NCBI RefSeq assembly: GCF_001017655.1
Contig: NZ_CP010904.1
Location: 870,001 to 902,000 of the forward strand
Origin: Kiritimatiella glycovorans
Lineage (GTDB): Bacteria; Verrucomicrobiota; Kiritimatiellia; Kiritimatiellales; Kiritimatiellaceae
Direction: 5' to 3'
Length of the DNA stretch: 32,000 bases
The notes beneath the pieces were generated by a model. That model was not told where the DNA came from and ran no database searches. It saw nothing but the letters and a program-made list of their open reading frames with translations. Numbering within the stretch: the stretch's first letter is position 1; every line of letters starts with the position of its first letter. Made by a program: the position numbers and the translations under genes. Below, one piece after another: positions 1,715 to 9,271 of the stretch.

Positions 1715-3982
1715 TTAAAAGATGCGTTTCACCCATGAGCGCAGCGCGCCGGGGGCCTTTACGATCACCGCGGGCGTCTCGGTGCGGAACGCCACCTGCT
1801 CGGGAACCGACGGGCCGGTCATGCGGCGCAGCAGCGGTTCGCGCGTGCAGCCGATGACGATCAGGTCGTACTGCCGGCTCTCTTCGAGAAGGGTCTCCAC
1901 GACATCCTGCCCGGAGCGGGTCAGGCATTGGACGCGCCGGGCGAACGGGCCGAGGCGTTTGTTCTGTTCGCCTACGAAGCTCTCCAGCGAAAAGGGGCGC
2001 CGTCCCGTATCGACCGTCATCGCCGTGATTTGGCCCTCCTCGGGGTCCGCCAGGATGGCGGCGATCTCGAGCGCGAAGGCGCTGTTGCCTCCGCCGGCCA
2101 CGGGGACCAGGACGTTGCGGTAACGCTGGTCGCCGCAGTTCTTCATGACGACCACGCGGGAGGGGGAGCGCTCGATGACGGGATCGATGGTGCGTCCGAA
2201 CGAGAACAGCCGGCGGCGCGGGCGTCCGTGCCAGCCCATGATCAGCATATCCGCCCGGTGCTGGCGCACGGCGCTCACCAGCCCGCGGGCGATGTTGCGG
2301 CAGTAGCGGATCGTCGTGCCTACGGGGAAGATCTGCGTCAGGTAGAGCATCGCCTCCACGATGCCCTCGCGGCCCTCGTCGGCGAAATTCGGCACGTCCC
2401 GCAGCGGCACGTAATCGGAGACGGGGATCATGTGGATCAGTTCCACCCGCGCCTCCCTGGCCTGGCAGATGCGGTACGTATTGCGCATCAGGGGCAGCAC
2501 ATTGTCGGGGTTGGCGACGCTGAGCATGATCCGGTATCCCTTGCCGGGCGGCGCCTTTTCCTCCTCGACCACGGTGATTTCCTCTTCCGTCCCCCGCGCG
2601 TGGGACCGGCCGTAGAACTCGTAGAAGAGCCAGCCGAGCAGAATCCAGGAGGGGGCCACGATCCAGGCCGCGTGACTCACATGGCGCAGGCCCGCCGCCA
2701 GAATGACCTGCGTAATGATGGCGGCGATGGGGAAAAAGGGAAACAGCGGCATGAGGTATCCGTAGGACAGCTCGTCGCCCATCTCCTGCCTTATGCGGAT
2801 CGCGCACAGGTTCACGAGGAAAAACAGAAAGAGGAACATGATGCTGGCGCTGGAGGCGACGTCCATGGTGGGCAGGAACAGCGCCACCAGCAGCACGATG
2901 ACGCCGGTGGCGCACAGGGCGAGGTAGGGCGTGCGCCGGCGGGCCGAGACGCGGGCGAGGGCGGGGGGGAGCATCCCGTCGCGGCCGAGCGCGTATGAGG
3001 CGCGCGTGGCGGAGTAAATCGTGGCGTTGAGCGCGGACGTCGCCGCGCAGATCACCGTCACCGTGACCAGCAGGTCGGCGAACGGCATCAGCCGGCTGAC
3101 CGCCTCTCCGAATCCCCGCTCCCCGAACTGTGCGATCCACGCCCAGACGGGGGTCTCGCCGACCCCGGGCGAGCCGGCTTTGACGGCCACGACGGTCGCG
3201 AACCCGACGAGCACGTAGGTGAGGGTCACGAAAAAGACCGAGTAGAGCATCGCCTTGGGGATCGTACGTTTGGGGTCGATGGACTCGTCACCCGCCTGCG
3301 CAATCACTTCAAACCCCTCGAAGGCCACGTAGGTGAACCCCATGGTGAGCAGGATTTTAGACCAGCCCTCGGGGAGAAACGGATCGAAGTTCTGGAGCCG
3401 CGAAGGGTCTTTGAGCGCCACCCAGATCCCCGCGGCGCCGATAAAGAGGAGGATCGCCATCTGGCCGAGGGTGAAAAAGGCGCCCACCTTTCCGGTTTCG
3501 GATGCGCCCCGGAAATTGATGTAGAGGAAGAAGAGGACCGTGATCGCCGCCACGCCTTTGACTAGGAGCGGATGTTCGGACGACAGGCCCCCGAGCAGTC
3601 CGAGGGTCTCCAGGTAGCGGAGCAGGTAGATGGCGAGTGTGAGGGCGTAGACGCTGCCCGCGACACTGGACGCGAACCACTCCATCCAGCCGGCGATAAA
3701 GCTCGCGCGCCGCCCGAAGCCCAGGCGCGCGAAGTTGTACGCGCCCCCTGCGCGGGGGATCGCGGAGCTGAGTTCGGCATAGGACATGGCGCTGAACAGC
3801 GCCACTAGGCCGTTGAGCGCGAAGGTCAGCAGCACCGCGCCGGGGCCGGCCATTCGGATCGTATTGCCCACGCCCAGGAAGACCCCGGCCCCGATCATCA
3901 TGCCGAGCCCCATCAGGGTGACGTGAAAGAGCTTCAGGTCGCGCGAGAGTTCGGAGGTCACGCCTCCCGGACGCTCACTCAT
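1715..3982 (-). CDS. APC-superfamily amino-acid permease fused to C-terminal tandem universal-stress-protein (USP) domains
   Basis: 755-aa ORF. The N-terminal half is multi-TM with an APC-type start (LFHVTLMGLGMMIGAGVFLGVGN). About 270 C-terminal soluble residues have two USP-like alpha/beta units (YRIMLSVANP..., YRNVLVPVAGGGNS...). Confidence 0.85.
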   Translation of the reverse strand: MSERPGGVTSELSRDLKLFHVTLMGLGMMIGAGVFLGVGNTIRMAGPGAVLLTFALNGLVALFSAMSYAELSSAIPRAGGAYNFARLGFGRRASFIAGWMEWFASSVAGSVYALTLAIYLLRYLETLGLLGGLSSEHPLLVKGVAAITVLFFLYINFRGASETGKVGAFFTLGQMAILLFIGAAGIWVALKDPSRLQNFDPFLPEGWSKILLTMGFTYVAFEGFEVIAQAGDESIDPKRTIPKAMLYSVFFVTLTYVLVGFATVVAVKAGSPGVGETPVWAWIAQFGERGFGEAVSRLMPFADLLVTVTVICAATSALNATIYSATRASYALGRDGMLPPALARVSARRRTPYLALCATGVIVLLVALFLPTMDVASSASIMFLFLFFLVNLCAIRIRQEMGDELSYGYLMPLFPFFPIAAIITQVILAAGLRHVSHAAWIVAPSWILLGWLFYEFYGRSHARGTEEEITVVEEEKAPPGKGYRIMLSVANPDNVLPLMRNTYRICQAREARVELIHMIPVSDYVPLRDVPNFADEGREGIVEAMLYLTQIFPVGTTIRYCRNIARGLVSAVRQHRADMLIMGWHGRPRRRLFSFGRTIDPVIERSPSRVVVMKNCGDQRYRNVLVPVAGGGNSAFALEIAAILADPEEGQITAMTVDTGRRPFSLESFVGEQNKRLGPFARRVQCLTRSGQDVVETLLEESRQYDLIVIGCTREPLLRRMTGPSVPEQVAFRTETPAVIVKAPGALRSWVKRIF

Positions 3983-4130
3983 CCCGGTCTCCCTTCTCGA
4001 TCTCGCGCGCGGAAGCGAGCCCGCTGCCGGCGATGCGGTCGATGCGGCGCCGGCTCCACACCGTCAGCAGCGTCAGAAGTGTGATCGCCGCAGCCAGCAC
4101 GCCCATTCCGATTAGCGTGTCCATGTGCAT
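3975..4130 (-). CDS. Candidate 51-aa single-pass membrane peptide translationally coupled to the APC permease
   Basis: Hand translation gives MHMDTLIGMGVLAAAITLLTLLTVWSRRRIDRIAGSGLASAREIEKGDRDE. It has one hydrophobic helix followed by RRR. Its TGA overlaps the permease ATG region (GATGAGTGA). It is below the ORF-track size cut-off and has no clear SD. Confidence 0.3.
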   Translation of the reverse strand: MHMDTLIGMGVLAAAITLLTLLTVWSRRRIDRIAGSGLASAREIEKGDRDE

Positions 4131-5235: not shown

Positions 5236-5312
5236 TGGTCGGGGCGACTGGATTCGAACCAGCGACTTCTACAACCCCATTGTAGCGCTCTGCCAGGCTG
5301 AGCTACGCCCCG
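5236..5312 (-). tRNA. tRNA-Pro, anticodon GGG, CCA encoded
   Basis: Hand-folded cloverleaf: acceptor CGGGGCG/CGCCCCG, D stem GCTC/GAGC, anticodon stem CTACA/TGTAG with loop ATGGGGT (G37), T arm GCTGG-TTCGAAT-CCAGT, discriminator A plus CCA. Confidence 0.9.
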
Positions 5313-5358: not shown

Positions 5359-6555
5359 TCAAGAAGATTTCCTCCGGCGTGTCCTCCGGCGATAGAGACG
5401 CTCCGTGAAGCCGCCCTCCCGCTCAAAGGCGGCTGCCTGTGCCCTGAGCTGCCGGTCCAGCAGATAGAGGCACACATTCAGCAGCGAGAGCGCCCCGTTC
5501 GCCGCGTAGACCGCGGCGAACTTCTCGCGCGACAGGGGGGACACGGACACACGGACGGTCACGGACTCACACTGACTCTCACGGAGAGGATCTCCGCTTC
5601 CGGACTGTCCCGTCCGTGATGGTTGCTGGTGGCCCGCGCTCGGAAACCGCATCTGGTCCTCACGGAGAGTTTCGGACTGTCCCGTCCGTGATGGTTGCTG
5701 GTGGCCCGCGCTCGGAAACCGCATCTGGTCCTCACGGAGAGTTTCGGACTGTCCCGTCCGTGATGGTTGCTGGTGGCCCGCGCTCGGAAACCGCATCTGG
5801 TCCTCACGGAGAGTTTCGGACTGTCCCGTCCGTGATGGTTGCTGGTGGCCCGCGCTCGGAAACCGCATCTGGTCCTCACGGAGAGTTTCGGACTGTCCCG
5901 TCCGTGATGGTTGCTGGTGGCCCGCGCTCGGCAACCGCATCTGGTCCTCACGGAGAGTTTCGGACTGTCCCGTCCGTGATGGTTGCTGGTGGCCCGCGCT
6001 CGGAAACCGCATCTGGTCCTCACGGAGAGTTTCGGACTGTCCCGTCCGTGGTGGTCTGTGTCTGTCCGTGACTGTCCGTGTGTCCGTGTCCCCCGTGTCT
6101 GTCCGTGTGTCCGTGTCCCCCGTCTCGCGCGTGGCTTCCTTCTTCCGCGCTCGTTTTTCTCTTTGCCATTCGTCCGCGATCCAGTCGCGGAATTCCTGCA
6201 GACTTGCGCACCGGAGATCCCTGAAGCGCAGCAGGGCGGGGTGGTCGGGCGGCCAGGCCGGAAGGTCCCGCTGACGGAGGAAGTCTTCGAAGTCGAGCTT
6301 GAGTTCCGCGAGACTTCCGCGCGCCACGCCCGTCAGCTTCAGCTCGCTCTTTTTCGACGTCGCGGAGTCCACGCTCCCTTCGGCGATGTTCTGCCGACCG
6401 CTTCGCGCGGCCTGGATCATCTGTTCGCGCATCCGGCGCTCCGGGCGCAGAAAACGGTCGCAGAAAAGCGTGGTGACATCATAAATGACCCCGGCGAGCC
6501 GGAAGGTCTTGAGCCGGCGGTAGCCGCCGTGCGCAGGGATTAAGGAATCATTCAT
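5359..6555 (-). CDS. Four-helix-bundle protein (23S rRNA intervening-sequence protein / Avd-like family, with suffix-type C-terminus) carrying a 200-codon repeat-rich insertion
   Basis: Start is placed at MNDSLIPAHGGYRRLKTF (ATG 6555) because the longer ORF-track start (6696) overlaps the acnA 3' end. The N-terminal part has QAARSGRQNIAEGS and SLAELKLDFEDFLRQR. The C-terminal part has ANGALSLLNVCLYLLDRQLRAQAAAFEREGGFTERLYRRR. In between lie TDTRTD low complexity and six 24-aa repeats. Confidence 0.8.
   Translation of the reverse strand: MNDSLIPAHGGYRRLKTFRLAGVIYDVTTLFCDRFLRPERRMREQMIQAARSGRQNIAEGSVDSATSKKSELKLTGVARGSLAELKLDFEDFLRQRDLPAWPPDHPALLRFRDLRCASLQEFRDWIADEWQREKRARKKEATRETGDTDTRTDTGDTDTRTVTDRHRPPRTGQSETLREDQMRFPSAGHQQPSRTGQSETLREDQMRLPSAGHQQPSRTGQSETLREDQMRFPSAGHQQPSRTGQSETLREDQMRFPSAGHQQPSRTGQSETLREDQMRFPSAGHQQPSRTGQSETLREDQMRFPSAGHQQPSRTGQSGSGDPLRESQCESVTVRVSVSPLSREKFAAVYAANGALSLLNVCLYLLDRQLRAQAAAFEREGGFTERLYRRRTRRRKSS
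5532..6123. mobile_element. Candidate non-autonomous (MITE-like) insertion with inverted termini and an 8-bp flanking direct repeat, carrying an internal satellite
   Basis: CTCGCGCG occurs at 5524-5531 and 6124-6131. The inner termini are 5532-5556 ACAGGGGGGACACGGACACACGGAC and the reverse complement of 6101-6123, ACGGGGGACACGGACACACGGAC. The extended arm 5535-5566 matches the reverse complement of 6064-6095 at 30/32. The right arm is tandemly duplicated. Confidence 0.5.
5578..6050. repeat. 72-bp tandem repeat, about 6.5 copies, near-perfect
   Basis: The GTGATGG landmark recurs at 5616, 5688, 5760, 5832, 5904 and 5976 (GTGGTGG at 6048). By eye there is one substitution among full copies (c at about 5932). 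The first copy is diverged and 9 nt longer. Confidence 0.95.
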
Positions 6556-6607: not shown

Positions 6608-9271
6608 TTAGTCTTCCGTGTTGAGCATCTTCCGCAACACGTATCGAAGCACGCCGCCGTGGCGGATGTATTCGCGCTCCAGGTCGGTGTCGACACGCGA
6701 GACCGCGGTAAAGCGGAGTTCCCCGCCGCCGGGCGGCCGGGCGACCACCTCGACGTCGCCGCCGGGTTTCAGGCGCGCCAGCCCTTCGATCGTGATCCGC
6801 TCCCGCCCGCTGAGTCCGAGCGTTTGCGCGGTTTCGCCCTCGCGGAACTGGAACGGTATGACGCCCATGCCTACGAGATTCGAGCGGTGAATGCGCTCGA
6901 AGCTCTCGGCGATCACGGCACGCACGCCGAGCAGCGCCGGGCCCTTGGCCGCCCAGTCGCGGGAGGATCCCGCCCCGTACATCTTGCCGGCCACGACCAC
7001 CATCGGCCGCCCGTCGGCGCGGTAGCGCTCGGAGGCCTCAAAAATGCTGCACTCCTGCTCCGAACCGTCCCCGCCCAGGTATTTTGTCCACCCGCCCTCG
7101 CGCTCGACCAGTCGATTGCGAATACGGATGTTGGCGAACGTGCCGCGCATCATGACTTCGTGATTGCCGCGGCGCGAACCGAAGCTGTTGAAGTCGGCGT
7201 CGTCGACCCCGTGCCCGCGCAGGTACGCCGCCGCAGGGCCGTCTTTCGGGATTTCGCCCGCGGGCGAGATGTGGTCGGTGGTGATGAAATCCCCCAGCAG
7301 CGCGAGGATCGCCGCTTCGCGTACATCGTCGAGTTTTCCGGCAGGCTGCCCGCAGCCTTCAAAGAACGGCGGTTCGCGCACGTAGGTGGAATCGGCTTCC
7401 CATTCGAAGACCGCGCCCCCGGGCGCCGCGAGACGATTCCACTCCGGATTGACCCGGTCCTGATCGCCGTATTGCGCGCGGTACGACGCAGGATCGGCGG
7501 TCATCGGACGGTATTGCGCGAGTTCTTCTTCAGTGAACCAAAGGTCGCGCAGGTAGACCGGCTGCCCGTCGCGGTCGTGGCCGACCGGTTCTGCGCTCAG
7601 ATCGATGTCCACCCGTCCCGCGAGCGCATAGGCGATCACCAGCGGGGGGGAGCAGAGATAATTGGCCCGCGTGAGAGGCGAGACGCGTCCCTCGAAATTG
7701 CGGTTGCCCGAGAGGACGGCGGCCACGTTCAGTCCGTGCTCGCGTACGGCCTGGTCGACGGCGGCGGGGCAGGGGCCGCTGTTGCCGATGCACGTCGCGC
7801 AGCCGTAGGCGGCGACCTGGAAGCCGAGCGCATCGAAGGCGTCCATCAGGCCGGCCTTTTCGAGGTAATCGCGGACCACGCGCGAGCCGGGCGCAAACGA
7901 GGTGCGCGTATAGTACGGGGGGCGCAGACCGCGTTCCGCCGCCTTGCGGGCGACGAGTGCGGCGCCGATCATCAGGTCCGGGTTGGAGGTGTTGGTGCAG
8001 CTCGTTACGGAGGCGATAATCACCGCGCCGTCCCGCAGCGTTCCGTAGTCGGGCACGTCCGCTTCGCGGGGTCCGGACTCCCGGCCGAAGTCTTCCCCGA
8101 ACTCTTCCGGCAGCCCGGAAAGGGTCATCTGTTCGTGCGGCTTGCGCGGACCCGCGATCGCGGATTCCACCTCGCCGAGATCAAGTTCCAGCGTGTCGTC
8201 GTAACCGGGTGCGGCGGCACCGGGCTCGCGCCACAGTCCCTGCGCCCGGCAGTATTGCTCGACCAGTTCGCAGTGTTCCTCCGTACGGCCGGTCTCGCGC
8301 AGGTATTCGATCGTGCGGCCGTCCACCGGGAAGAACCCCGTCGTCGCCCCGTATTCAGGCGCCATGTTCGCCACCGGACAGCGGTCCGCGAGACTCAGCG
8401 CCTCCACCCCGTCGCCGAAGAATTCGACGAAGTGTCCGACGACCCCTTTTTCGCGCAGCATGCGCACGACGGTCAGCGCCAGGTCGGTTGCCGTGACCCC
8501 CTCGCGCAGACGGCCGGTGAACCGGAAACCGACCACCCGGGGCGAGAGCATCGGCATCGGCTGGCCCAGCAGTGCGGCCTCGGCCTCGATGCCGCCCACG
8601 CCCCAGCCGAGTACGCCCAGGCAGTTGATCGTGGTCGTGTGTGAATCCGTGCCGACGAGCGTGTCCGGGCAGGCCAGCCCGTCTTCGCGCACCGAGACGA
8701 CATCGGCGAGGTGTTCCATGTTCACCTGGTGGCAGATGCCGAGGCCGGGCGGGAGCACGTTGAGCGTGTCAAAGGCGTTCTGTCCCCACTTGAGAAAGCG
8801 ATACCGCTCCGCGTTGCGGCGGAATTCGATCTCCATGTTGTGCTGCAGCGCGCAGGCGGTGCCGGTTTCGTCGAGCTGCACGGAGTGGTCGATGACGAGA
8901 TCGGTGCGCAGCATGGGTTCGATGCGGGCGGGGTCGGCGCCGGCGCGGGTGGAGGCGGAACGCAGCGCCGCGAGGTCGACGACGCAGGGTACGCCGGTGA
9001 AATCCTGCAGCAGGATACGTCCGGGCAGAAACGGGAGTTCGCTGCGCGTCCCGCCCGGGGTCCAGGCGGACAGTGCGTCGAGATGTGCCGGCGCGAACCC
9101 CGGTTCGCCCTGACGGCGGGCGACGGATTCGAGCAGGATGCGTACGGAATAGGGGAGACCGTCCAGATCTATTCCGGCCGATTCGGCCAGGACCGGCAGA
9201 CTCATGTAGTCCACTTGGCGTCCCGTCGAGAGCGTCAGGGTTTCACGGGGGTGTTTCAGGTTTTGCGCCAT
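6608..9271 (-). CDS. acnA: Aconitate hydratase A (IRP-like monomeric aconitase)
   Basis: About 887-aa ORF with aconitase signatures (ATCIGNSGP, LSGNRNFEGRV, swivel-domain C-terminus). Start is chosen at MAQNLK (ATG 9271), preceded by GGAGGAGAG. The ORF track extends to a TTG at 9301. Confidence 0.95.
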   Translation of the reverse strand: MAQNLKHPRETLTLSTGRQVDYMSLPVLAESAGIDLDGLPYSVRILLESVARRQGEPGFAPAHLDALSAWTPGGTRSELPFLPGRILLQDFTGVPCVVDLAALRSASTRAGADPARIEPMLRTDLVIDHSVQLDETGTACALQHNMEIEFRRNAERYRFLKWGQNAFDTLNVLPPGLGICHQVNMEHLADVVSVREDGLACPDTLVGTDSHTTTINCLGVLGWGVGGIEAEAALLGQPMPMLSPRVVGFRFTGRLREGVTATDLALTVVRMLREKGVVGHFVEFFGDGVEALSLADRCPVANMAPEYGATTGFFPVDGRTIEYLRETGRTEEHCELVEQYCRAQGLWREPGAAAPGYDDTLELDLGEVESAIAGPRKPHEQMTLSGLPEEFGEDFGRESGPREADVPDYGTLRDGAVIIASVTSCTNTSNPDLMIGAALVARKAAERGLRPPYYTRTSFAPGSRVVRDYLEKAGLMDAFDALGFQVAAYGCATCIGNSGPCPAAVDQAVREHGLNVAAVLSGNRNFEGRVSPLTRANYLCSPPLVIAYALAGRVDIDLSAEPVGHDRDGQPVYLRDLWFTEEELAQYRPMTADPASYRAQYGDQDRVNPEWNRLAAPGGAVFEWEADSTYVREPPFFEGCGQPAGKLDDVREAAILALLGDFITTDHISPAGEIPKDGPAAAYLRGHGVDDADFNSFGSRRGNHEVMMRGTFANIRIRNRLVEREGGWTKYLGGDGSEQECSIFEASERYRADGRPMVVVAGKMYGAGSSRDWAAKGPALLGVRAVIAESFERIHRSNLVGMGVIPFQFREGETAQTLGLSGRERITIEGLARLKPGGDVEVVARPPGGGELRFTAVSRVDTDLEREYIRHGGVLRYVLRKMLNTED

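Follow-up and report, generated by a model that had tools for sequence, protein, structure and literature searches.

A four-helix-bundle gene of Kiritimatiella glycovorans carries, in a single loop, a DNA palindrome whose center holds a tandem array of near-identical 72-bp repeats. The gene lies within the 32,000-nt stretch of DNA analyzed here, which we call the window and whose positions are used throughout. We favor the reading, at a probability of about three in four, that the palindrome is inherited, of type A and in frame, and that its center was recently inflated by the 72-bp repeat, which is private to this organism. A resident palindrome would then encode the loop that joins the N-terminal bundle to the suffix helix, with ~10-bp-periodic CACGGAC units in one arm facing GTCCGTG units in the other, and both arms translated. 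A 72-bp (24-codon) segment including the hairpin apex would have been amplified, recently and only in K. glycovorans, to 6.3 near-identical copies, and one arm would have undergone a smaller 27-bp duplication, also confined to K. glycovorans. The original prediction had seen in the same structure a 592-bp transposon-like element, inserted in frame and bounded by an 8-bp target-site duplication; its "terminal inverted repeats" would be the inherited arms.

Judged by its sequence, the window gene is an intact type-A member of the "four helix bundle suffix" proteins, related to PF05635 (23S rRNA IVS protein/Avd-like fold). Its product is GenBank AKJ64027.1 from K. glycovorans, by exact sequence match in a public collection. 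Two NCBIfam models score above their cut-offs, TIGR02436 (30.1 bits, cut-off 24) and TIGR04258 (62.5 bits, cut-off 40, residues 350-396), the second downstream of the N-terminal part recognized by the first, as the suffix architecture requires; the Pfam model PF05635, at 26.9 bits, is sub-threshold (gathering score 33.8). The AF2 model has helices at residues 16-35, 41-61, 68-95, 106-114, and 119-144 in the N-terminal part, where ten-residue block means are mostly >90 and fall to 63 at residues 61-70, and at residues 343-380 and 383-397 in the C-terminal part, with block pLDDT of 81-97. Searched with Foldseek, this model best matches 2GSC (probability 1.00; 85 columns aligned at rmsd 1.8, TM-score on target 0.67) and 2RLD (probability 0.99); the E-values are weak, at 0.05-0.8, an effect of the disorder in half of the model. 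These relatives were found by fold search only, and a PDB sequence search with the window protein gave no match. All 56 family-invariant residues are intact, 39 of them in the N-terminal part.

The public annotations of the gene disagree. GenBank annotates the full 398 aa, under a misleading topoisomerase name, and the RefSeq gene model has 67 aa only, starting at a GTG inside the 3' arm, and is named four helix bundle suffix. The neighbors of the gene are acnA and tRNA-Pro(GGG), the latter on the same strand and 46 bp downstream of the stop codon. At gathering thresholds, Rfam finds three tRNAs only in the window and hence no 23S rRNA around the gene, a location that membership in the four-helix-bundle family does not need. 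A Pfam scan of ten large window ORFs found no transposase and no reverse transcriptase.

The anatomy of the palindrome is as the original prediction described it, and all of its coordinates and counts for the inverted arms, the octamer CTCGCGCG and the match between the arms are confirmed. The two copies of CTCGCGCG are spaced exactly 600 bp apart, and 30 of the 32 positions of 5535-5566 agree with the reverse complement of 6064-6095. A 21-nt core, GTCCGTGTGTCCGTGTCCCCC, is present in three copies, at 5536-5556 (minus strand) and at 6074-6094 and 6101-6121 (plus strand), where shuffles expect 0, and is absent from the rest of the 32-kb window. Longer arms can be drawn at 5526-5564 and 6093-6131 (39 nt, 90% complementary) or at 5531-5590 and 6040-6099 (60 nt, 83% complementary), and both pairs qualify as MITE-type terminal inverted repeats. 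The unit of the arm arrays can be written as (CACGGACNNN)n. The right arm had been said to occur twice in tandem, and the sense-strand 5' arm does hold a 27-bp unit in 2.1 copies (6066-6123, 96% matches). Predicted folding energies are -297 kcal/mol for the sense-strand RNA (z = -5.7) and -163.8 kcal/mol for the DNA (z = -13.1); the outer stem dominates both folds, and the centroid structures retain it. The proposal that the symmetry is a property of the nucleic acid rather than of the protein is supported in spirit. From 5532 to 6131, the sense frame is open for 600 nt, or 200 codons, as had been stated. Three other frames carry only one stop each over this span, so that the open frame is weak evidence for translation of the insert, a caution already voiced in the original prediction and one with which we agree.

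Table 1. Features of the palindrome-bearing gene and its surroundings, in window positions
Feature	Positions	Strand	Content and basis
Whole gene, 398-aa four-helix-bundle-suffix protein	5359-6555	-	ORF and translation; stop codon at 5359-5361
N-terminal bundle part, aa 1-144	6124-6555	-	3 bundle helices and 2 more; AF2, Foldseek
Right 8-bp direct repeat CTCGCGCG	6124-6131		encodes ..TRE, aa 142-144
Sense-strand 5' arm	6040-6131	-	CACGGAC arrays, translated TGDTDTRTDTGDTDTRTVTDRH; homologous to NTDxHGxTRT of relatives
72-bp tandem array, 6.3 copies	5601-6055	-	24-aa units SRTGQSETLREDQMRFPSAGHQQP; TRF score 896
Sense-strand 3' arm	5526-5590	-	GTCCGTG arrays, translated ...LRESQCESVTVRVSVSPLSRE; aligns with VRESPCxSV of relatives
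Left 8-bp direct repeat CTCGCGCG	5524-5531		encodes ..RE just before KFAAVY
'4helix_suffix' domain, aa 350-396	5368-5508	-	last long bundle helix; TIGR04258, AF2
tRNA-Pro(GGG)	5236-5312	-	context only, outside the element; ARAGORN, Rfam tRNA 59.7 bits

Repeat peptides of 24 aa were mentioned in the original prediction only in passing, with neither their period nor their copy number nor their positions. TRF reports a period of 72 with 99% matches and 0% indels, and the array makes up 455 of the 592 bp of the proposed element. Of the six full copies (5601-6032), five are identical and the sixth differs by a single A>C at 5932; partial copies bound the array on the left (CTCACGGAGAG, 5577-5587) and on the right (CGGACTGTCCCGTCCGTG, 6033-6050). 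This array is young and private to K. glycovorans. The 72-bp unit has 0 exact matches in the metagenome contigs, neither it nor the element termini have a second copy within the 32-kb window, and no other protein covers the 24-aa repeat in a search of 5.8 billion clusters. By our own count, with the definition applied to its relatives, the window linker is 224 aa long, against a median of 49 aa (range, 31 to 96) in the relatives, and no protein among the 150 best cluster representatives exceeds 329 aa, compared to 398 aa in the window. Smaller tandem repeats do occur in the linkers of relatives, with 11 aa repeated 4 times in P0040, 12 aa repeated 3 times in P0056, and another case in P0023.

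The expansion probably arose when replication slipped, or when short direct repeats recombined unequally, at a palindrome that would hinder replication. The array edges, with partial copies on both sides, fit slippage, which we infer to be the mechanism. The ORF would have stayed open because the unit length is divisible by three and its sense frame lacks a stop; indeed, the 72-bp unit leaves the frame open whatever the copy number. AF2 predicts no secondary structure for residues 145-342, with pLDDT mostly <50 across residues 155-337, and the helices that flank the insert have block pLDDT of at least 90. The insert looks tolerated by the protein, since it is predicted to be unstructured and all of the invariant residues are in place. 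The product would be a bundle with ~200 residues of predicted disorder tethering its last helix, and the 398-aa protein is probably still made and functional.

Could the expansion instead have inactivated the gene, with the ORF open by chance and recency and fragments expressed at most? We consider this cryptic disruption unlikely. A RefSeq model that keeps only the last 67 aa would suit it, but GenBank annotates the gene at full length. An open sense frame is not improbable when three other frames have one stop each, and the array is very young (99% identity), therefore leaving no time for decay; however, invariant residues on both sides of the insert are intact without exception (56/56). Similarly, a linker 2.3 times the longest among 109 relatives might be expected to disrupt, but it lies in a loop that naturally varies between 31 and 96 aa, and the bundle is still predicted to form.

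An inherited palindrome also has to be weighed against a 592-bp MITE-like element with an 8-bp target-site duplication, recently transposed into an uninterrupted 198-aa gene. The inverted arms and flanking direct repeat are there, and the insert-free protein would be of plausible length, type-B members having ~180 to 195 aa. However, the closest homologs (P0002 to P0009) and more than 100 others, 58 to 67% identical over the aligned protein, all have a homologous linker at this position, in which the N side (NTDxHGxTRT) uses CACGGAC-type codons and the C side (VRESPCxSV) uses those of GTCCGTG type. This is the outcome that the original prediction named as refuting it, and it argues against a discrete element newly inserted in the window gene. 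In homologs from many phyla, ~10-bp-periodic CACGGAC/GTCCGTG arrays encode NTDxHGQTRT…VRxSPCxSV, and they sit between the bundle and the suffix helix, as in the window gene; both the N-side and the C-side motif are found in 82 of the 109 type-A relatives that were parsed. Relatives show (K/R)E ahead of the N-side arm (e.g., KRENTD in P0006 and P0007), and the closest ones show P(R/Q)E after the C-side arm (e.g., PREQLGAVL in P0004). The ortholog alignment suggested as a check of the insertion has no indel boundaries at 5532 or 6123 and runs through both, pairing the window's ...GDPLRESQCESVTVRVSVSPLSREKFAAVYAANGAL with ...PDVRESPCQSVS..PSVLAANGAL. Empty sites are absent from the type-A relatives, whose linkers have a minimum of 31 aa, and none of the proteins is as short as 198 aa.

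When nearest neighbors are chosen by the flanking, non-linker parts of the protein, 54 of 58 have the same linker type. By these sequence comparisons, the linker type is inherited with the gene, and the arms are an inherited resident palindrome, not the ends of a fresh insertion. The supposed target-site duplication does not hold up either, as CTCGCGCG is about as frequent as expected by chance (12 observed in the 32-kb window versus 10.4 expected). Of its eight bases, six form a self-complementary CGCGCG that closes the foot of the stem and belongs to the inverted repeat. With the termini also lacking a second copy in these 32 kb, we regard a recent transposition into this gene as quite improbable.

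What stands of the MITE-like description is the dispersal of such palindromes in many genomes, in frame in other genes as well. At least 120 metagenome contigs have this inverted-array hairpin, in most cases with no four-helix-bundle gene (of the first 81 loci, 7 at most are inside one). By crude ORF classes, 60 of 122 hairpins from these contigs are at an ORF end, 31 are inside a long ORF, 9 are spanned by none, and 22 are near a contig end. The arm family thus behaves in metagenomes like the dispersed, mostly extragenic palindromes of the REP/REPIN kind, a result that concerns metagenomes, the view of K. glycovorans being the 32-kb window and its single copy. At one locus (L188), the hairpin is in frame and encodes the T-C linker of an NRPS (PP-binding, 355-418; Condensation, 450-882), while two other T-C junctions of that ORF have no hairpin; this is the behavior of Rickettsia palindromic elements, which sit in frame in unrelated proteins where insertion is tolerated. 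A single repeat type is dispersed over environmental genomes, phage contigs, and linkers of unrelated proteins. ORF clustering over 860 kb around 120 hairpins yielded no RAYT or recurrent transposase, and the sole recurrent family linked to the element was the four-helix-bundle-suffix gene itself.

In the dispersed hairpins, the variable 3-nt spacers have a complementarity of 0.442, versus 0.331 ± 0.013 with shuffled partners. Because this complementarity is only partial, the heptamers, not perfect pairing, look like the conserved feature. Rfam in E-value mode gave only sub-threshold generic miRNA-precursor hairpins for 15 hairpin loci. A peptide search with the array-encoded NTDKHGQTRT... returned 4 candidates, none usable, and yields no census of in-frame copies. 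In all, "exonized MITE/REP-like element" is a fair description of the ancient origin of the linker, not of a recent event. The old linker palindrome may have been replaced by a newer copy of the dispersed family.

The 24-aa repeats might also be a protein-level adaptation, for instance a spacer or binding-repeat domain under selection, and not just a by-product of unstable DNA. The length of their unit is exactly divisible by three, its frame is open, and their composition is hydrophilic, but they have no homolog in the 5.8 billion protein clusters, match no Pfam or NCBIfam family, and are predicted to be disordered. Moreover, near-identical copies carry no selection signal, and the sole substitution among full copies, the A>C at 5932, is non-synonymous (F>L); we find such an adaptation very hard to credit. 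Least probable of all, to the point of being negligible, is a concatemer made by a reverse transcriptase and then integrated, with the Avd-like protein as accessory factor, after the model of DRT2/Neo, in which a reverse transcriptase reportedly copies a hairpin-closed template by rolling circle: the likeness is a formal one (stop-free tandem units within a stem, beside an Avd-fold protein), but the ten scanned ORFs include no reverse transcriptase, PADLOC finds no defense-system family for the window protein, and the array edges resemble ordinary slippage products.

The inherited palindrome with its inflated center is one instance of a pattern that extends across the four-helix-bundle-suffix family, which comprises ~3,000 sequence clusters from more than 15 phyla. 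The family always has short in-frame DNA repeats at one fixed loop and also in the flanks. In other subfamilies, this site and the two gene flanks hold short-period arrays of a different kind, and these are conserved even at synonymous positions. In a shuffle test, linker hairpins reach z >= 3 at 37 of 75 loci, compared to 4 of 75 coding controls; with that proportion, we rejected the stronger statement that a significant hairpin is present in almost every linker. We also rejected a universal CGGAC motif for every subfamily, as type C has several codon solutions. Mismatches in the linker stems (G:U, 21; A:C, 39; other, 130) do not support selection on the sense transcript specifically. Linkage to tRNA genes is not the rule, with a tRNA within 1.5 kb at 6 of 60 related loci, a mild enrichment only. 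The conserved neighbors of related loci are limited to hsdS/hsdR (5 to 6 loci) and secA (4 loci), with no transposase found among them, and Rfam at gathering thresholds found only tRNAs at 20 related loci. Our literature search returned no relevant paper on four helix bundle suffix proteins or on the heptamer words.

For K. glycovorans, the outcome is a small one: a translated palindrome of unstable length would have tripled the loop of one small protein. The family-wide repeat pattern outweighs this single-genome result. It is conceivable, though still doubtful, that PF05635 genes, including the suffix type, are the coding core of small selfish cassettes with cis-acting short-period arrays. 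The cis sites would then be the arrays of 7 to 10 bp located 5' of the gene, in the loop between helix 3 and the suffix, and 3' of the gene, often inverted. The protein would bind these arrays, and some subfamilies would carry a topoisomerase-type zinc ribbon. The hundreds of solo hairpins in genomes and phages would be non-autonomous derivatives, as REPINs are to RAYTs, and the classical ORF-containing 23S rRNA intervening sequence would be one special case. If so, the long-enigmatic IVS-protein/Avd-like family would gain a function outside diversity-generating retroelements (DGRs). Array binding is a testable idea for the role of PF05635/IVS proteins.

Several known systems resemble parts of this arrangement. 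In-frame VNTRs of bacterial genes share with the window array its recent, near-identical copies, a unit that is a multiple of three, and partial-copy edges, but a conserved palindrome encloses the window array in its loop. The intervening sequences of 23S rRNA with a PF05635 ORF have the same fold beside a long inverted-repeat hairpin, and at some related loci (L003 and L239), the whole ORF is enclosed by inverted arrays in an IVS-like manner; L239 and L243 make up a pair of filled and empty sites. In contrast, the window gene is outside any rRNA gene, and its palindrome is inside the ORF, not around it. PF05635 has been linked to Avd of DGRs (PMC10053308). Avd and the window protein share the four-helix-bundle fold family but differ in the suffix-domain architecture with its long insertion before the last helix, and the adjacent reverse transcriptase that marks a DGR Avd is missing among the ten large ORFs scanned.

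REP, BIME, and REPIN elements of proteobacteria are many-copy imperfect palindromes, mostly at gene ends or in intergenic regions, without an internal transposase, and any mobilization would be in trans. The dispersed hairpins are likewise many-copy imperfect palindromes without an internal transposase. They differ in that no RAYT or recurrent transposase accompanies the 120 loci, in that heptamers recur periodically along their arms, set apart by variable 3-nt spacers, and in that in-frame copies occur. BOX elements of Streptococcus pneumoniae are modular (boxA-boxB(n)-boxC) and intergenic, with boxB part of the element family. They too have partly complementary end modules around a variable number of tandem internal units; however, their sequence is unrelated, and the window array is a private, intragenic expansion. 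Rickettsia palindromic elements (RPEs) are short palindromes that are dispersed and also lie in frame inside unrelated ORFs (PMC10969869, which also names BOX elements). The RPEs and the palindromes described here share in-frame insertion tolerated in surface loops or linkers, with the two arms translated into unrelated peptides. By their descriptions, the two are set apart in sequence and hosts, and the arms here are heptamer arrays with a ~10-bp period. Moreover, the palindrome here would be ancestral, fixed in position, and carried with its gene across phyla. It would be a second, independent case of selfish palindromes in genes, after that of Rickettsia.

The best explanation of this segment, to which we assign a probability of about three in four, is a translated palindrome resident in the gene family, in which a private 72-bp tandem repeat has recently enlarged the centre. 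The original prediction was a 592-bp MITE-like transposon inserted in a four-helix-bundle gene, and every number in it proved correct on recount. These include the direct repeats and inverted arms listed in the table, a tandem duplication of the right arm (2.1 copies of a 27-bp unit), a 21-nt core with three copies here and none elsewhere in the 32 kb, and 600 nt (insert plus one direct repeat) free of stop codons in the sense frame. The outer stem dominates the predicted folds (z = -5.7 for RNA, -13.1 for DNA) and is kept in centroid structures, with the start of the 72-bp unit at the apex of the hairpin (CGGAC-gggaca-GTCCG on the sense strand). Five of the six full 72-bp copies are identical, and the other has a single A>C at 5932 that changes F to L. 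The 24-aa repeat peptides that these copies would encode had at first been mentioned only in passing and left uncharacterised.

Coordinates of features in the window and in related loci
Sequence	Feature	Position	Strand	Remarks
Window	Four-helix-bundle-suffix gene	5359-6555	minus	ATG at 6555, stop 5359-5361; 398 aa
Window	tRNA-Pro	5236-5312	minus	Same strand as the four-helix-bundle gene, ~50 nt or less past it
Window	8-bp direct repeat	5524-5531 and 6124-6131		CTCGCGCG; spacing 600 bp
Window	Inverted arms	5535-5566 and 6064-6095		30/32 matches
Window	72-bp tandem repeat	5601-6055		6.3 copies, 99% identity; most of the interior
Window	Partial copy, left of array	5577-5587		11 nt from the end of the unit
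Window	Partial copy, right of array	6033-6050		18 nt from the start of the unit
L239 (Kiritimatiellales MAG)	PF05635 gene	7652-8159		Region with a classic-type gene (123 aa) directly after acnA
L243	Gene order of L239 without cassette	6161-6467		
L005	tRNA-Ser	2246-2333		Same strand, within ~50 nt after its four-helix-bundle gene
L188	Type-A hairpin	3939-4021		In frame in a 3742-aa NRPS ORF
L141	Nested dispersed hairpin	3620-3830		

In NCBIfam, the N-terminal part of the host protein matches TIGR02436 (four helix bundle protein; 30.1 bits, cut-off 24) and residues 350-396 match TIGR04258 (four helix bundle suffix domain; 62.5 bits, cut-off 40); the match to PF05635 is under the Pfam gathering score. 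An AlphaFold model, made from an alignment of 61 sequences, has confident helices at residues 16-35, 41-61, 68-95, 106-114, 119-144, 343-380 and 383-397. Residues 145-342 are modelled without secondary structure (pLDDT mostly <50), and the closest folds in Foldseek are 2GSC and 2RLD, PF05635 members of solved structure. The public gene models conflict: GenBank AKJ64027.1 covers the whole ORF under the product name "DNA topoisomerase type IA Zn finger protein", and RefSeq WP_236682497.1 covers only the last 67 aa (suffix protein), from a GTG start within the 3' arm. The surrounding genes are housekeeping genes (HtrA-like protease, NifU, permease, CysE-like, tRNA-Pro, AcnA, GlmS, AcrB), and the adjoining aconitase matches Kiritimatiella glycovorans AcnA (2.95-Mb record) at 100% identity. 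No transposase or reverse transcriptase was found in the ten ORFs of the window scanned. For GC3 the gene has values of 0.77 (N part), 0.69 (insert) and 0.66 (suffix), lower than the 0.81-0.89 of neighbouring housekeeping genes, as would fit a foreign origin or a difference in constraints. A tRNA also follows the related gene in L005, and of 60 related loci 6 have a tRNA no more than 1.5 kb away.

Relatives of the protein indicate how the arms came to be in the gene. A search of 5.8 billion protein clusters returned 4,773 relatives, and an exhaustive HMMER search returned 3,065 clusters at 50% identity. The closest, from Kiritimatiellae, Verrucomicrobia, Lentisphaerae, Planctomycetes, Nitrospirae, Hydrogenedentes and Anaerolineae, are 58-67% identical across the aligned protein. 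All of them carry a linker at the identical position, of the form ...(K/R)E-NTDxHGxTRT...loop...VRxSPCxSV(F/S)..., followed at once by the suffix helix. In its DNA, the N side is built of CACGGAC units and the C side of GTCCGTG units, commonly at 10-bp spacing; HGQTRTDTDR is the translation of (CACGGACAGA)3, which therefore explains the linker peptide. The window segments ...VTDRH... and ...LRESQCESVTVRVSVSP... align with the NTDxHGxTRT- and VRxSPCxSV-type segments of the relatives. Linker length is 31-96 aa (median 49) in 109 parsed type-A relatives and 224 aa in the window. Linker type goes with the phylogeny of the protein outside the linker, being shared with the nearest neighbour in 54 of 58 cases. 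On these comparisons, the arms appear to be an inheritance, not a fresh insertion.

The 72-bp array is another matter. The metagenome collection contains no exact match to it, and in the search of 5.8 billion protein clusters no other protein covered the repeat part of the query. Partial copies lie at both edges of the array, as is usual after slippage or unequal exchange, and smaller tandem repeats occupy the same loop in three homologous proteins (P0040, P0056, P0023). The array would thus be a recent local expansion within an intrinsically unstable palindrome, and it may have been tolerated because its unit amounts to 24 codons and sits in a loop that naturally varies in length. In the putative 398-aa product all 56 family-invariant residues are intact, but the event is too recent for decay to have become visible. 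The sole full-length match to the query, the NCBI-derived protein P0001 (384 aa), has its entire N-terminal domain tandemly duplicated with the junction at an NTxRHG repeat, as would be expected from unequal exchange between a 5' array and the linker array.

Short-period repeats are not confined to the window gene. The 80 genome loci compared, from >15 phyla, have them at three positions: directly 5' of the gene, in the loop ahead of the suffix, and directly 3' of the gene (or ahead of an extra C-terminal zinc ribbon). Their sequence differs by subfamily: 10-bp CACGGAC arrays in type A, that of the window gene; 9-bp TATAGGWCC units in type B (core CCTATAGG, itself palindromic; peptide (D/N)RSYxTYRTY); 9-bp GTCnGAC units in type C (SDxSDxSD); and GATCCGACC-like units in type D (TDPTDP). 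A resemblance to the linker at z >= 5 was seen for the 5' flank in 31 of 75 loci and for the 3' flank in 24 of 74, compared with 1 of 71 and 0 of 71 distant control segments, and the linker held an inverted repeat with z >= 3 in 37 of 75 loci versus 4 of 75 coding controls. Stem mismatches were G:U in 21 cases and A:C in 39, so sense-RNA pairing is not favoured. Codon sharing was compared in 30 fixed-length type-B genes among L009-L076 (Acidobacteria, Bacteroidetes, Chloroflexi, Clostridia, Deltaproteobacteria and others; linker codons 104-113 of the alignment). Pairs sharing an amino acid used the same codon in ~20-60% of cases over most of the gene and in 80-93% at most repeat codons (AAT AGG, three TAT, one ACC), with a few at 50-66%. 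The N-R-S-Y-x-T-Y-R-T-Y codons are near-fixed between phyla, including the rare AGG at the first Arg position (0.80) and TAT for Tyr (0.87-0.93). The pattern shows that selection, or else homogenisation, acts on the type-B linker repeats at the nucleotide level.

Types C and D often terminate in a topoisomerase-type C4 zinc ribbon (PF01396), with another copy of the short repeat array between suffix helix and ribbon (L015, L032, L045, L047, L055, L056, L060, L064, L066-L068, L072, L073, L077 and L078; assigned by Pfam in the L068 protein, 3.5e-11, and by the CPxCG…FWGC motif in the others). They are probably the source of the GenBank topoisomerase name, which is unfitting here because Pfam finds no zinc ribbon in the window protein. 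In L017, L053, L057, L071 and L079 the type-C gene is part of a type I restriction-modification operon, with hsdS on one side and hsdR on the other, and the adjacent HsdR has an in-frame SDxSDxSD array in L057, L071 and L079 and none in L017.

Some related loci have cassette-like layouts. In L239 the PF05635 gene, of another subtype (33% identity over 42 aa) and next to acnA as in the window, is flanked by inverted 7-bp arrays, (GTTCAGN)4 and (CCTGAAC)4-6, whose 30-nt arms are 83% complementary; on one side these arrays adjoin the stop codon of acnA, and on the other they run into the beginning of the following gene. The cassette is absent from L243, where the spacer has other short repeats (GTTTCAACG), and from L241, L244 and L245. 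In L003, a 2281-nt Nitrospiraceae MAG locus, a type-A gene with the minimal linker ENTCPSVF sits between long inverted arrays of 10-bp period, with (GTCCGTGnnn)x11 on its upstream side and (CACGGACnnn)x6 on its downstream side (score 80, z 23.5); a second GTCCGTG array lies past the downstream one. This ORF-in-a-hairpin layout resembles the 23S rRNA intervening sequence (IVS).

The type-A palindrome also occurs away from the family. The pattern CACGGACNNNCACGGAC-N8-38-GTCCGTGNNNGTCCGTG is present in at least 120 metagenome contigs, and a four-helix-bundle-suffix linker holds the hairpin in at most 7 of the first 81 loci. Among the matches listed, 122 hairpins fell at an ORF end (60), inside a long ORF (31), in no ORF (9) or near a contig end (22) by a crude ORF criterion, and the ORFs around 120 of them included no recurrent transposase. 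The arms have 2-4 in-register units, with partial complementarity of the spacers (0.442 vs 0.331 for shuffled partners). In L188 the hairpin forms a PP-binding (carrier)/Condensation linker; the other two T-C junctions have ordinary linkers without it. In L141 it is nested in a far longer near-perfect palindrome with ~40 nt of unique sequence beyond the arrays on each side, which suggests duplication of the foldback type or some larger element. In 37 IMG/VR viral contigs (L081-L117) there are (CACGGACNNN)3-5 arrays of a single orientation, with no four-helix-bundle gene near them; several are inside long ORFs, and both orientations are found. Since such palindromes are dispersed, and in frame in L188, an exonised MITE-like element is reasonable as the ancient history of the linker, not as a recent event, and the original interpretation is borne out in part. 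Similarity to the relatives runs on past both proposed ends of the insertion. The supposed target-site duplication is not persuasive; its 8-mer occurs 12 times in the window versus 10.4 expected, its CGCGCG is a self-complementary stretch of the inverted repeat, and both copies encode "RE", which relatives also tend to have at both stem bases. Together with the homologous linker at this site in relatives, these results argue against the insertion originally proposed and are what the prediction itself had named as its refutation.

The PF05635-type family first came to light in 23S rRNA intervening sequences. It is related to Avd of diversity-generating retroelements (PMC10053308) and is still called functionally uncharacterised (bioRxiv 10.1101/2024.02.27.582315). 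We found no description of the linker palindromes, flanking arrays or heptamer hairpin family in the searchable literature, which does not in itself prove novelty. The repeat architecture merits follow-up as family-wide, conserved at the nucleotide level and possibly linked to PF05635 gene function or mobility. The window feature combines known kinds, namely in-frame palindromic repeats and VNTRs. REP/REPIN elements are extragenic palindromes, and BOX elements have end modules around variable tandem units. Rickettsia palindromic elements lie in frame within many genes (PMC10969869). These and REP/REPIN-type palindromes are the nearest analogues, and BOX elements resemble the window insert in having ends and a variable tandem core.
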